Origin: Candidatus Micrarchaeota archaeon
GTDB lineage: Archaea > Iainarchaeota > Iainarchaeia > Iainarchaeales > JAGVWC01
Length of the DNA: 29,485 nt
Assembly: GCA_043803815.1 (NCBI GenBank)
Contig: JAZDJR010000023.1
Coordinates: forward strand, 1-29,485
Direction: 5' to 3'
Shown in pieces: positions 9,764 through 19,308 of the stretch (its first letter is position 1; each line of letters opens with the position of its first letter). A program made the position numbers and the translations under genes. The notes beneath the pieces were generated by a model, which saw nothing but the letters and a program-made list of their open reading frames with translations, was not told where the DNA came from and did no database searches.

Positions 9764-9903
9764 GGGGCTGTAGTCTAGCCTGGTAGGATTCATGCTTTGG
9801 GAGAGCCCCTTTTCTTTTTAGGAAAAGAAAAGGCCCTCGGTTCAAAAGAAAACCCGTTGGTCCAAACGAGCATGTGACGGGGGTTCAAATCCTCCCAGCC
9901 CCA
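9764..9903 (+). tRNA. tRNA-Pro(TGG) with 67-nt intron at 37/38 (intron 9802-9868); CCA not encoded
   Basis: Acceptor GGGGCTG/CAGCCCC-A; anticodon stem CATGC/GCATG; T-loop TTCAAAT; canonical BHB (TTTG/CAAA helix, bulges GGA and CGA). Confidence 0.95.
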
Positions 9904-10140
9904 CAGCTTTTTTTGCATGGCAAAAAAACCTCCGTTTTGGGCACCGAATCAAGCAGTGCTTGATTGGCCCTTTTTGGCCAACAGCCAAAAATGGAAGCCC
10001 AAAAGGACCCTTGAAGCTTTGCTTCAAGTGGTGGGAAAAAATTGCCTTCGGCAACAGCTTTTTTTCATTCTGGAAAAAAACCCGGGAAAAACTTCGATTC
10101 TTTTTTCGGGTTTTCTTTCCAAGAAAAGTTTTGCGGGGAA
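9903..10140. repeat. Mosaic of short hairpins and triplex-type repeats
   Basis: At least six inverted repeats; ACAGCTTTTTTT at both 9903 and 10054. Confidence 0.75.
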
Positions 10141-12691: not shown

Positions 12692-13062
12692 TTTTTTCCC
12701 GCCTTTTTAAGCGCTTTATTAAAGCCGCGCTGCAACGATTCCAGTTCGCGCTGCAAAACTTTTTGCTCCCACACCGCGTTCATAATTTGCTGGGTTTTGG
12801 TTTGCTTGGACAGCGCCTTGATTTGGCCGCCGACTTTTTTGCGCACTTCCTTGGTCTGGCTCTCGGTCTGCTCTTCCCGTAACACCAATGAACGGTACGA
12901 TTGCCGCAATTGACGGTCAAGGTTTTGCTGGGCCAAAAACAGTTTTTTTTCAAGGGACAGCAAAGCGATTTCTTCAAGCACGATTTGTTTTCGCGTTTTG
13001 TGCAGCTGCTCTTCCAATTGGCCGACCCGCTTTAAAAAATCGTTTTCAACCACTTTAGCCAC
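12688..13062 (-). CDS. Coiled-coil hypothetical protein
   Basis: GTG at 13062 lies about 25 nt below a TTTATA box (13085-13090); stop overlaps the next start. Confidence 0.65.
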   Translation of the reverse strand: MAKVVENDFLKRVGQLEEQLHKTRKQIVLEEIALLSLEKKLFLAQQNLDRQLRQSYRSLVLREEQTESQTKEVRKKVGGQIKALSKQTKTQQIMNAVWEQKVLQRELESLQRGFNKALKKAGKK

Positions 13063-13170
13063 GATTACTATGACGATTTTTTGGTATAAATAGGTTTGGT
13101 CTGCGGTCCAAACACCATTTAAAAAACGATTCAAGCGCAATTTAATCGGAATTCACTGGCGTTTAATCGG

Positions 13171-13278
13171 TTGGGGCCGTAGCCGTAGCAGCCTTTTTAA
13201 TAAAAAGGCTGGCGAAAAAATAGTATCGGGCATTCTAAGAATGCCCGGTCGTATGCGTCGTAAATGGACCAACCATTT
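13171..13278. repeat. Duplicated tRNA 5' end (12 bp) plus double-hairpin element resembling the tRNA intron
   Basis: TTGGGGCCGTAG at 13171 and 13277; hairpins CAGCCTTTTT/AAAAAGGCTG and CGGGCATTC/GAATGCCCG. Confidence 0.8.
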
Positions 13279-13424
13279 GGGGCCGTAGTCTAGCCTGGTA
13301 GGATTTCAGCATGGGGAGAACCTTTGTCAAAGGTTCGCGAAAAATACGTTATACCCTTTTCAAGGGTACTGCGTATGCCATTGCCAGCGTGCTGAAGACG
13401 GGAGTTCAAATCTCTCCGGCCCCA
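13279..13424 (+). tRNA. tRNA-Pro(GGG) with 73-nt intron at 37/38 (intron 13317-13389); CCA not encoded
   Basis: Acceptor GGGGCCG/CGGCCCC-A; anticodon stem TCAGC/GCTGA; A32/U38; T-loop TTCAAAT; relaxed BHB. Confidence 0.92.
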
Positions 13425-13425
13425 A

Positions 13426-13497
13426 AATTACTGGTTTCTTTTCCCCAGGCTTTTCTTTTCCAAAGAAAAGGCTGGTGGACAATCTCTCCGGCCCCAA
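13426..13497. repeat. Triplex-type hairpin element followed by a 17-bp copy of the tRNA 3' end
   Basis: AATCTCTCCGGCCCCAA at 13409 and 13481; TTTCTTTTC-N6-CTTTTCTTT-N3-AAAGAAAAG between them. Confidence 0.85.
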
Positions 13498-13545
13498 CCC
13501 ACATTTTCGACTGCTGTATATTTTAATGAGAAGCCATATTTGAAT

Positions 13546-14436
13546 ATGATTCAATCAATCAAAGCGTACGGCTTTGCATTGCTATCCGTAATGCTTTGGG
13601 CAACCGCGGCCGCGGTTTCCAAACTGCTTTTGGGCAAAGGGTTAAATGCCCTGCAATTGCTGCTGTTCACTTCTTTTTTTGCCACGGTGTCACTTGTCCT
13701 GGTTGCGGCAAGCAACGGCAAATTAAAACTGGTAAAACATTTTTCCGTTAAAGAATGGATTCAGCTGGGCGCCATCGGAGCCATTGGAATTTTTTTGTAT
13801 CACATTTGTTATTTCGGCTCCCTGCAATATTTGCCCGCGCAGGAAACAACCATTATCAATTATTTGTGGCCGCTAATGACCGTGCTCATCGCGATTCCGC
13901 TTTTGCACGAATCGTTTTCGATTCGAAAACTTGGGGCAACGGTTTTGTCGCTGGCGGGAGTCTGGATAGTCGTATCCAACGGAAATATTTTTTCATTCCG
14001 CTTTGACAACGCTTTTGGCGTTGCTTTGGCGTTTTCAGGAGCCGTGCTATACGGATTGTTTGCGGTTCTGGGAAAAAAATCCAAGATTGACAAAACCTCC
14101 AGCATGCTGGCATACTGCGCGGTCACGTTTGCGTTATCCCTGATTTCGGTTCCGGTATTCAGCCGCATTCCGGCTATTTCGCTTTTGCAGTTAATTGGAA
14201 CTGCATGGCTTGGCATTTGCATCGGAATCGGCTTTTGGCTCTGGTTTTTGGCTTTGCATTACGGCGACACGGCTAAAATTTCCAATCTGGCGTATTTAGT
14301 CCCGTTTATTTCCCTGGTATTTGTGTATGTTTTATTGGCCGAGGAAATCATGTGGTTTTCCATTGCCGGCCTTGTGCTGATTGTGGCGGGCATTTTCGCG
14401 CAAACCTGGCCAAAACCCGATTTTAAACGGCAATAG
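13546..14436 (+). CDS. DMT/EamA family transporter
   Basis: About 10 TM in two repeats; INYLWPL, LAYLVPF, LLAEEI. Confidence 0.92.
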   Translation: MIQSIKAYGFALLSVMLWATAAAVSKLLLGKGLNALQLLLFTSFFATVSLVLVAASNGKLKLVKHFSVKEWIQLGAIGAIGIFLYHICYFGSLQYLPAQETTIINYLWPLMTVLIAIPLLHESFSIRKLGATVLSLAGVWIVVSNGNIFSFRFDNAFGVALAFSGAVLYGLFAVLGKKSKIDKTSSMLAYCAVTFALSLISVPVFSRIPAISLLQLIGTAWLGICIGIGFWLWFLALHYGDTAKISNLAYLVPFISLVFVYVLLAEEIMWFSIAGLVLIVAGIFAQTWPKPDFKRQ

Positions 14437-17874: not shown

Positions 17875-18558
17875 TTATTTTTTGGGCAAACGGTTTATAT
17901 AATCCAGAATTTCCCGGCTTGCGACCGCGCAGCCCGCGGTCTTGACGGCAAATAACGACGCTTCCAAAGTCGCGGGATTTTGGGAAAGCTCGTAGCCGAA
18001 CAAGTCGTGTTTATACGTCCACGCCAGCAAATCGCACGAGCGCACAATCAACGCGGACTTGAACTGCTGCCGAATCGGGGCAAGGGCGGCCTGGTTCACC
18101 GAAACTTTTTTGTCGTACTTTGCAGCAATGTGGTTTTGAAGGCGAAGCGGCTCTTCAACCAGCATGCGACACGTCCTTTCGTCGATAGCCATGGCGTCCG
18201 CCTGCAAAGACAAATACAAAGCCATGGTTTCGATTTCTCCGGCCTGCAGAATCGCCAAGGGTTTTTTTCCGATTAAAAAACTGTGATTGGCCCAGTCCGC
18301 GATTTTGGCTGCCCATTGTTTTGTTTCGCTGGTCGGCTGGACGATTTCCATCCATTCCATCTCGACGGCTTCGCGAATCCGCTCGGCGTTAAGCTCGAAG
18401 CGGTGAATCCGGGTGGGGGTTTCGACTGATTCGTCCCAAACCGACTGGGAAAGCAAAAACCGGCAGTCGGAATGGTCGTGCATGTGCATTAACAGGCGAA
18501 AAAAACATTTTTCGGAAAGCGAAATTAGAGTGCTGGAATCGAAAATAATGGCGTTTAT
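17875..18558 (-). CDS. PIN-domain protein; probable ATA start at 18558
   Basis: In-frame extension above the listed ATG gives IIFDSSTLI (first PIN strand and Asp); also SVWDE, AGEIE, IDER; GAGGTG 5 nt before ATA. Confidence 0.75.
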   Translation of the reverse strand: MNAIIFDSSTLISLSEKCFFRLLMHMHDHSDCRFLLSQSVWDESVETPTRIHRFELNAERIREAVEMEWMEIVQPTSETKQWAAKIADWANHSFLIGKKPLAILQAGEIETMALYLSLQADAMAIDERTCRMLVEEPLRLQNHIAAKYDKKVSVNQAALAPIRQQFKSALIVRSCDLLAWTYKHDLFGYELSQNPATLEASLFAVKTAGCAVASREILDYINRLPKK

Positions 18559-18740
18559 ATCAACACCTCGCCGTTGATTTTCGCGAAGCGATTTTCTTTT
18601 TCCCGGGTTTTTCTTTTTTGAAAAGAAAAAGCCGCGGTACTGGAATCGAAAATAATGGCGTTCAATTCAACACCTCGAAATTCGAATCGAAAATAATCGC
18701 ATTCAATTCAGCGCATTGACTTGGAACCGAAAATGGCGAT
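18533..18740 (-). repeat. Three to four tandem decaying copies of the PIN gene start with an inserted triplex-type element
   Basis: 38-bp copies at 18533 and 18640 (3 mismatches), 27-bp copy at 18684, degenerate copy near 18722. Confidence 0.85.
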
Positions 18741-18741
18741 T

Positions 18742-19308
18742 TCATGCCAGCACCTTGTCCAGCCGCTTTACCCTTGATTCGATTTCGGAAGCGGTTTTTT
18801 GCTCGTCGTGCATTTTGGTGTAGCCGATGTAATTGAACAGATCTTTTTTGTTCGCGCCGGTAAGTCCGGTGGCTTGGCTTAAACTAAGCCCCAGCGCGTA
18901 AAGCGAACTGGCCTGCTTGACCCTGCTTTTTTCCAATAGGTTTTGGACAAAATGCCCGCCTTGGCTGTCGATTTTGTACACGTGTTCCTGCAGATGGTCC
19001 AAGAGTTTTTCAAAAGCGGGAACGTTTTTTTGAACCAGCGCTTTTTGGGCGTCAGCCAAATCCATGCGAATATTTTTTTGGATAAACTTCCATCCTTTTT
19101 GGCCTTGCAAATGTTCCTTGGTCAAAAGCTTGTGCAAGGCATACGCGAGCACCGCCACTTCGGCCTGCAAAGAATCGTTTTCAAGGGATGCGCGATAAAC
19201 CGCTTGGTCCGCGATTTCGCGCAATTCACGGGCATTATTGGACGAAAACGCGGCCTGGATTTTCGCGATTTTTTTGGACAATTCTTCAAGCACAAAACAA
19301 ACACGCAA
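18742..19308 (-). CDS. Hypothetical helical protein upstream of the PIN gene
   Basis: 188 aa ORF, host-like codon use; start uncertain. Confidence 0.8.
   Translation of the reverse strand: MRVCFVLEELSKKIAKIQAAFSSNNARELREIADQAVYRASLENDSLQAEVAVLAYALHKLLTKEHLQGQKGWKFIQKNIRMDLADAQKALVQKNVPAFEKLLDHLQEHVYKIDSQGGHFVQNLLEKSRVKQASSLYALGLSLSQATGLTGANKKDLFNYIGYTKMHDEQKTASEIESRVKRLDKVLA

Follow-up and report, generated by a model that had tools for sequence, protein, structure and literature searches.

The intron of a tRNA-Pro(GGG) gene in a small archaeal genome, the look-alike of this intron that lies just upstream of the gene and the hairpin that follows its 3' end are probably three copies of one family of modular hairpin elements, whose insertions are kept either by a repeat that rebuilds the end of the gene or by splicing; we give this reading a probability of about 0.55. 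Its members are of three kinds, those in tRNA introns, those flanked by rebuilt gene ends and those at ordinary intergenic sites, and direct repeats on both sides of the hairpin are a general mark of it. The window, i.e. the whole stretch of 29,485 nucleotides analysed here, is contig C23 of a draft archaeal genome (G000; 1.08 Mb in 36 contigs, completeness 85.6%), and a neighbouring protein encoded in it has 60% identity to a protein of a Candidatus Iainarchaeum MAG.

The tRNA-Pro(GGG) gene occupies positions 13279-13424 of the forward strand, on which all features of the locus are given here, and scores 45.9 bits with the Rfam tRNA model; ARAGORN assigns to it an intron of 73 nt, at the canonical position (13317-13389). 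Run without its intron option, ARAGORN calls no tRNA in the window, and at the gathering score two tRNAs are the sole Rfam matches there, the hairpin elements belonging to no Rfam family. A C/D-box RNA or another known RNA is ruled out for these elements by the lack of an Rfam match and of box motifs on reading the sequence. Upstream of the gene, the 12-nt direct repeat TTGGGGCCGTAG, which consists of TT plus tRNA positions 1-10, occurs in an outer copy at 13171-13182, a 5' fragment of the tRNA, and with 100% identity in an inner copy at 13277-13288, and between the two lies a 94-nt look-alike of the intron, so that, as the preliminary description had it, the insert is flanked by a duplication which leaves an intact tRNA. 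The look-alike begins with CCGTAG (13183-13188), an echo of the fragment end, for which CCRTAG or TCGTAG stands at the matching junction in G032, in G084 (L092) and in a contig of run X2. Then come hairpin 1 (13189-13211), with a 10-bp stem of T-run and A-run arms and a 3-nt loop, an A-rich linker made of GCGAAAAAATA and GTAT (13212-13226, or 13212-13222 in its narrower span), hairpin 2 (13227-13247), with a 9-bp stem and a 3-nt loop, and a tail (13250-13276) that holds CGTATGC at 13250-13256, a stretch pairing with 13212-13215 as a closing helix and a small hairpin of 4 bp. The intron has the same order of modules, namely a hairpin with a 3-nt loop (13318-13336), the linker (13337-13346), which reads GCGAAAAA(A)TA in both copies, a second hairpin with a 3-nt loop (13352-13368) and CGTATGC (13372-13378). 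The repeats, hairpins, linkers and CGTATGC motifs named in the preliminary description are thus all where it had placed them.

The 3' end of the gene is duplicated as well. Its last part AATCTCTCCGGCCCCAA, 17 nt running from T-loop position 58 to one base beyond the discriminator, is exact at 13409-13425 and at 13481-13497, and the 55 nt between (13426-13480) form a downstream element with a T-run and then a 14-bp hairpin (13445-13475), a reverse-oriented member of the CCTGGG-AAAA hairpin type that is common in the genome. The outer 3' fragment is complementary to the outer 5' fragment over 14 nt (93%) in an inverted-repeat search, and the two pair in the predicted fold of 13150-13510, which has -148.4 kcal/mol and a z of -7.6. 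Before the outer 5' fragment, a local duplication of TTTAATCGG with 21-nt spacing (13141-13170) separates it from a TATA-like box, TTTAAAAAA at 13118-13126, of which 13118-13125 reads TTTAAAAA and which stands 47-55 nt before the fragment.

The kinship of the two look-alikes was examined with covariance models. An alignment of six copies by MAFFT proved structurally inconsistent, and therefore models of single sequences were built first and a model-guided alignment afterwards. Model 1, made from the upstream copy alone, found the intron with 20.6 bits (E 0.016 in 40,347 bases) at rank 18 of 71, several of the matches above it being hairpin-only; better relatives were the tRNA-Arg(GCG) intron of G000 (33.3 bits) and, in G003, a tRNA-Gly(CCC) intron and copies upstream of tRNA-Glu (34.7-49.4 bits). 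For model R2, which was built from seven relatives with both window copies left out, the best match in the window is the upstream copy, with 82.1 bits and an E of 2.9e-17, and the next best is the intron, with 33.9 bits and an E of 5.3e-6; the tRNA-Arg(GCG) intron receives 67.3 bits; in whole-genome scans the intron is absent from the list owing to the first-look filter. The downstream element is matched weakly by R2, with 20 bits on the minus strand. The proposal that one element family had entered this gene twice is therefore borne out as to the kinship of intron and upstream copy, and falls short in the number, as there are three hits and the 3' element is among them. Within the seven-sequence alignment, 92.6% of the cells pair and 15 of 28 pairs are changed on both sides, against a mean of 6.0 after shuffling, with 0/500 shuffles as high and slid controls at 4 or fewer; these counts lean towards structure because the alignment was fitted to the model, and since covariation of stems may also arise at the DNA level through palindrome correction, they are no proof of a role as RNA.

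The search for further members proposed in the preliminary description was productive. At E<=1e-5, R2 finds the family in 39 of 121 genomes and in 24 of 62 genera of the order, which comprises Iainarchaeum-like DPANN archaea, and the settings are tRNA introns, the space between duplicated tRNA ends and sites downstream of genes. We read 25 further loci, each the best R2 match of its genome: six are in tRNA introns called by ARAGORN (Ser, Trp, Arg), seven lie within 100 nt of a tRNA gene and 12 have no tRNA call within 100 nt. The module is thus found in the introns of Pro(GGG) and Arg(GCG) in G000 and, among relatives, in those of Gly(CCC), Ser, Trp and Arg(TCT), and in many of the intron copies that were read hairpin 1 begins no more than a few bases from the 5' splice site. 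Exact-motif search and short-word BLAST of the genome returned the two window copies, one hairpin at C25 and nothing else, and it was through other tRNA loci, rather than through exact motifs, that the family became visible.

The second hairpin behaves like an exchangeable cassette. Hairpin 2 (13227-13247) is wholly different among copies that are otherwise near-identical, i.e. those of the window, of L014 (197-265) and of the X2 contig, which comes from another organism and runs at this place into a palindrome matching hairpin 2 of the unit that flanks tRNA-Glu in G003. This replacement points to a cassette-like exchange or to hypermutation driven by the palindrome. A separate observation is a conserved double-hairpin module inside the loop of hairpin 1 in L015 (96-210 and 1440-1570), L016 (330-440), L017 (380-450) and G000:C8 (31105-31280), by which elements sit within elements.

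Duplicated tRNA ends were sought in G000 as exact matches of at least 10 nt between a tRNA end and its 300-nt flank, for 32 tRNA genes and 64 ends. Nine of the 64 ends match and two of these matches are owing to neighbouring tRNA genes, which leaves seven ends of six genes, with exact repeats of 10-22 nt, against 1/64 ends in a control with reversed flanks. Of the six genes, Pro-GGG has both ends duplicated, the only such case among the 32; two have a 3' repeat, namely Arg-GCG (18-19 nt) and a Ser-TGA-like gene at C8:31281 (17 nt), and three have a 5' repeat, namely Ser-GGA (17 of 18), a Trp-like gene at C29:4496 (22 nt) and His (10 nt). The anticodons of two of the six were assigned by reading the sequence. 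In every case a hairpin element lies between the repeats, which are 42-160 nt apart at the tRNA loci of G000 with no gene inside. Each of the three 3' repeats begins in the T-loop, at position 57 or 58, the 5' repeats stop between positions 10 and 22, and the repeats extend to or past the tRNA termini. End duplications belong to 5 of the 12 tRNA genes with long introns and to 1 of the 20 others, in what are small numbers, and the copy upstream of tRNA-Ser(GGA) very closely resembles the hairpin in the intron of the same gene. Two further tRNA genes are missing from both tRNA lists (G000:C18:32309-32464 and C14:50141-50226), and the intron of the former has a hairpin with a second hairpin nested inside; at G000:C30:9017-9968, ARAGORN predicts a tRNA-Phe with an 866-nt intron.

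The same layout is found in other genera. G003 has three tandem units before tRNA-Glu and one before tRNA-Arg, and G032, a one-contig genome of another family, has two tandem units before tRNA-Pro(CGG). Units also lie upstream of tRNA-Gln in G040 and upstream of tRNA-Gly in G084, where the repeat is 28 nt long and reaches 18 nt upstream of the gene; G015 has 3' fragments of tRNA-Gln, and in G020 a 13-nt 3' repeat accompanies the 3' end of tRNA-Gln.

Protein-coding genes show the mark too. In G000, 241 hairpins combine T-run and A-run arms with a stem of at least 9 bp, several of them directly 3' of tRNA genes. Among the 112 with a stem of at least 10 bp, nine lie between direct repeats of 12-23 nt, compared with 0 of 672 random control positions, and these nine are five tRNA cases and four protein-gene ends: a gene start with its ribosome-binding site at 18480-18760 of the window (minus strand), the first codons of an oxidoreductase subunit gene at C29:70.7 kb, the last codons of a gene at C18:97.4 kb, and the stop/start overlap of two ribosomal-protein genes at C36:9.6 kb, where the two copies, of 14 nt each, do not differ and the sister genera have just one. 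Both of the protein-gene insertions that were tested have empty sites in the sister genera G002 and G003, i.e. a single target and no hairpin, and these two insertions are therefore derived. In three of the four protein-gene cases the exact repeat continues as a diverged copy, with five differences, all synonymous, at C18:97.4 kb and with ATG CTA against ATG ATT at C29:70.7 kb; such tails look more like two alleles than like a fresh duplication. At the window locus, the hairpin 18604-18634 lies between exact 23-nt copies of the ribosome-binding site and first ORF codons; the copies are alike over 37 nt save for a 4-nt patch. The start codon of the upstream copy is TTG, for which ATA stands in the downstream one. 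For the target duplication that had been claimed for the tRNA-Pro(GGG) gene it follows that the signature is there, and that it is not peculiar to this gene, being present at 6/32 tRNA genes, at four protein-gene ends and in other genera.

Related strains differ at the locus, as compared here on the contigs of runs X1 and X2. A contig of 2228 nt from run X1, belonging to a strain of about 94% identity, covers two blocks of the locus, 13050-13316 (12 differences) and 13389-13750 (34); the upstream element is retained, as are the two pairs of repeats, while 23 other letters replace the 72-nt body of the intron. In this strain the linker and tail motifs are changed at 13218, 13250 and 13252, and the tRNA-end fragments are identical. 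From run X2, one contig has an intron-less Pro(GGG) gene, and a second (record 5) follows 13173-13228, i.e. fragment, hairpin 1 and linker, with 2 differences before it passes into a different palindrome. The Pro(GGG) genes of G002 and G003 are intron-less, and that of G001 has a 20-nt intron which opens with the same seven letters, AACCTTT, as the long intron. Presence and length of the intron thus differ among the X1 strain, X2 and G001-G003, and intron content therefore turns over quickly. The search for empty alleles that had been suggested gave no clean one at the tRNA-Pro(GGG) locus: the closest strain already has the upstream element with both repeats, and more distant relatives are not syntenic at the locus.

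Whether the flanking elements are spliced was judged by the BHB motif. Every register in which cutting both copies of a repeat rejoins an intact tRNA was examined for a central helix of 4/4 pairs and two flanking helices of at least 2 bp each, and the motif is formed in 0/18 registers upstream and in 0/22 downstream, while the intron of tRNA-Pro(TGG), used as a control, forms it with 4/4, 5 and 2. A free scan for motifs between leader and trailer gave 4 strict ones against 4.4 expected by chance. An origin of the flanking elements as introns, or a BHB that joins leader and trailer, is ruled out by the register test and by a scan at chance level, and without a BHB these elements are leader and trailer rather than introns. 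The intron at 13317-13389, at position 37/38, has a relaxed BHB with 3/4 pairs in the central helix, 7-8 bp in the exon helix and 0-2 bp in the intron-side helix, and no intron seen here departs from the canonical position. The stretch 9764-10130 of the window holds the tRNA-Pro(TGG) gene mentioned above, which has a 67-nt intron built around the T/A hairpin 9808-9833, and directly after it a cluster of at least four more hairpins, among them a double-hairpin module also present in G003.

The promoter evidence concerns the upstream element. Other tRNA genes of G000 have a box of the TTTAAAA type 27-48 nt upstream, and the inner Pro(GGG) gene has none at that distance; the sole upstream match to it is the one at 13118-13126, which agrees with the preliminary placing of the best TATA (13118-13125) before the dead fragment. 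The A-rich linker is an unlikely promoter, as it does not match the box of the other genes. Since the box precedes the outer fragment and the inner gene lacks one, fragment and element are most likely transcribed as leader RNA, and judging by the sequence they would most likely be removed by RNase P, the RNA of which is present in the genome (86 bits). The earlier view that the element should be in the pre-tRNA leader thus agrees with the position of the box, with the lack of a BHB and with the presence of RNase P RNA.

According to the reading which we prefer, the module would be a T/A-rich hairpin followed by an A-rich linker and often by a second, variable hairpin; it would have spread through this archaeal order by inserting at or near gene ends, with a repeat of 12-23 nt of flanking sequence at each insertion. 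A tRNA gene could survive such an event along two routes: either the repeat rebuilds the whole gene beside a dead fragment of its end, as may have happened at 5' (13171-13288) and 3' (13409-13497), or the element comes to lie at position 37/38 and the splicing endonuclease removes it as an intron. A transcript would most likely begin at the old promoter (13118-13126) and contain the dead 5' fragment as well as the element; a cut by RNase P at 13278/13279 and removal of the intron by way of its relaxed BHB would follow. What we infer from these comparisons is the direction of events at tRNA-Pro(GGG), the fate of its transcript and the origin of its intron as such an insertion. The intron may instead be an older one that was later colonised by the element, and the second copy of the tRNA end may have been carried in by the element in the fashion of an attachment site rather than made by target duplication; since the junction of CCRTAG followed by a hairpin recurs in G032 and G084, and the X2 contig matches 13173-13228, a tRNA-like piece may travel with the element. 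Against the preferred reading stand the lack of a clean empty allele at this locus, the allele-like tails of the repeats in three protein-gene cases, the repeat lengths of 10-28 nt, which are unlike the work of a classical transposase, and the absence of a consistent partner enzyme across the element-bearing genomes searched.

The enzymes and the known classes of element bear on the last point. Y1 transposase (Y1_Tnp) is present in G000 and G001 and was not found in the element-bearing genomes G002, G003 and G032 (83-94% complete). The element has the inverted-repeat ends and the many copies of a MITE, with 241 T/A hairpins and 39/121 genomes, and empty sites in G002 and G003 at 2/2 protein-gene insertions tested; target-site duplications of a fixed length are not seen, the lengths being 10, 12, 14, 17, 17, 17, 18, 19, 22, 23 and 28 nt. 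As with the attachment sites of integrases, the direct repeats include the tRNA end, and no integrase or cargo lies between them, the inserts of 42-160 nt being too short for a gene. A retroposed (SINE-like) element was considered and given up, as RVT_1 was found in none of the five genomes searched (G000, G002, G003, G032 and G040, 83-94% complete), and so was a casposon-derived element, since Cas1 was not found in G000 (85.6% complete) and the repeats vary in length as against duplications of 14-15 bp. Repeats that vary between 10 and 28 nt, allele-like tails and a junction that recurs are not what a classical transposase or a plain integrase would leave.

Some mobile elements of G000 are to be recorded separately. 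The genome has two tyrosine recombinases, one of which, a 444-codon ORF, directly follows an intron-bearing tRNA-Leu(GAG) missed by ARAGORN and the Rfam scan (G000:C29:57921-59289); about 30 kb downstream, the same strand has a second copy of the last 12 nt of this tRNA (C29:29404-29415), and the region may be an integrated element. The same 23-nt palindrome stands about 95 nt from the ends of nine contigs (C7, C12, C13, C15, C19, C21, C27, C29 and C33), and a Y1 transposase is encoded on C21 and, in part, at the start of C8, which suggests a multi-copy IS200/IS605-like element that breaks the assembly.

A bolder form of the insertion reading, which we regard as tentative, takes the modules as a self-propagating miniature element that is the DNA-level vehicle of archaeal tRNA intron gain, landing in the D-, anticodon- and T-loop parts of tRNA genes, reshaping the starts and stops of protein genes and using an enzyme of an undescribed type. 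An element at 37/38 would become an intron because a BHB can form there, insertions in the D- and T-loop would survive only with a duplication that rebuilds the gene, and the enzyme would have to produce duplications that are long and differ in length, with no help from a reverse transcriptase, from Cas1 or from a consistent transposase. Somewhat more doubtful still is recombination at an attachment site, in which the element, or a larger one since collapsed to a hairpin, brought its own tRNA end, so that the repeats are attL and attR and the outer fragments are the displaced original ends. The allele-like tails, synonymous-only at C18:97.4 kb and ATG CTA versus ATG ATT at C29:70.7 kb, keep this alternative alive, and so do repeats that reach or pass the tRNA termini with all three 3' repeats of G000 starting at T-loop 57 or 58, the junction after tRNA position 10 that recurs in G032 and G084 and in an X2 contig equal to 13173-13228 save for 2 differences, and the tyrosine recombinase gene directly downstream of a tRNA-Leu in G000; a 5' tRNA fragment beside a rebuilt tRNA with a new intron after integration has, moreover, a precedent in the portion of Sugahara et al. 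2012 (PMC3293823) consulted. However, at every tRNA locus of G000 there are just 42-160 gene-free nt between the repeats, and a uniform collapse of many large elements into one hairpin is unlikely; a circle of about 100 bp is too small a substrate for a recombinase, and the identical 14-nt copies at the ribosomal-protein junction, single in the sister genera, have the pattern of a simple target duplication.

A selected structure is unlikely. The fragments and hairpins would then be kept in leader and trailer for the processing, stability or transcription of the pre-tRNA, for instance as terminators or as promoter-like T/A palindromes, which agrees with the 14-nt pairing (93%) of the outer fragments, with the fold of 13150-13510 (-148.4 kcal/mol, z -7.6), with the layout being found in several families of the order, with fragments that are identical in the strain of ~94% identity and with similar hairpins immediately downstream of tRNA genes, the place at which one expects a terminator. 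Yet the layout is limited to 6/32 tRNA genes and occurs at both ends in tRNA-Pro(GGG) only, zero changes in 29 nt at ~6% divergence are by our estimate not significant, linker and tail motifs are altered in the close strain (13218, 13250, 13252), and the empty sites in relatives for the same signature at protein-gene starts and stops are the pattern of insertion. A purely local origin, by tandem duplication of the 5' exon with the intron and later deletion of most of the first exon copy, would need no mobile family and would suit the tRNA-Ser(GGA) copy that is so close to its own intron hairpin and the tandem arrays of G003 and G032; we hold it to be very improbable, for the upstream element is closer to the tRNA-Gly intron and the tRNA-Glu-flanking copies of G003 (43.6-49.4 bits) than to its own intron (20.6 bits), two precise steps would be needed at each of many loci, and the protein-gene cases would be left unexplained. 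An artefact of assembly, which a 36-contig draft of a metagenome-assembled genome may bring to mind and which had been named as a way in which the duplication could fail, is hardly credible, in that the independent contig of the ~94%-identical strain spans the whole arrangement with both duplications, the repeats (12 and 17 nt) are shorter than the usual assembly words, and the single-contig genome G032 has the same layout.

The origin of archaeal tRNA introns is an open question: the part of PMC4090602 consulted calls the mechanism of their transposition unknown, and the part consulted of a 2026 preprint on Asgard archaea reports that no general route by which such introns arrive was found. 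Here one family is met in three forms: it serves as an intron, it stands as an unspliceable insertion beside a gene end that has been rebuilt, and it forms plain intergenic insertions for which relatives have empty sites; as close strains also differ in intron content, the question becomes testable by population genomics and RNA mapping. The finding is thus a concrete lead on how archaeal tRNA introns arise. Gene-end fragments duplicated beside hairpins are, besides, common in these small genomes, which bears on the annotation of tRNAs and of gene starts.

Within a limited collection of main texts, such elements are not described in Iainarchaeota or DPANN. Looser parallels may be drawn with REP/BIME and MITEs. 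Bacterial REP/BIME and MITEs consist of short palindromic units that conserved linkers join into mosaics; they lie mostly between genes, have many copies and resemble terminators. As far as the portions of PMC3184786 and PMC10969869 consulted go, the elements here share with them mosaic palindromes, linkers, intergenic position and multiple copies. Unlike them, the present elements have long and variable repeats (12-23 nt, up to 28), reside in tRNA introns and have no consistent partner transposase. Integrase attachment sites have preferred sub-locations within the tRNA. Examples of such sites in tRNA genes are given in the portions of PMC3293823 and PMC4090602 consulted; here too the repeats run from a loop region of the tRNA to the end of the gene and the gene is rebuilt, but no integrase or cargo lies between the repeats, and 5' sites in the D-arm are as common as those in the T-loop.

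Closer precedents are found among the archaea themselves. In Thermoproteales, according to the part of PMC4090602 consulted, near-identical introns occur in tRNA genes of different identity, which points to spread at the DNA level, and here likewise one module is common to introns of different tRNA identity. The present module differs in that introns are not its only setting: it is met between duplicated gene ends and downstream of protein genes as well, and relatives have empty sites; its introns are all at the canonical position, and its lineage is DPANN. In the Caldiarchaeum model, as set out in the part of Sugahara et al. 2012 (PMC3293823) consulted, a tRNA gene is disrupted by integration of a mobile element, and a 5' tRNA fragment stands, as it does here, as a direct repeat upstream of the rebuilt intron-bearing tRNA gene, in connection with intron gain. 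Going by the same part of that source, the intervening DNA of Caldiarchaeum measures 1.8 kb and encodes a recombinase, whereas here it is 94 nt of gene-free hairpins, and 3' ends and protein genes bear the signature here too. The transposition of introns in Thermoproteales and the integration model of Caldiarchaeum are the closest precedents for the elements at tRNA-Pro(GGG).
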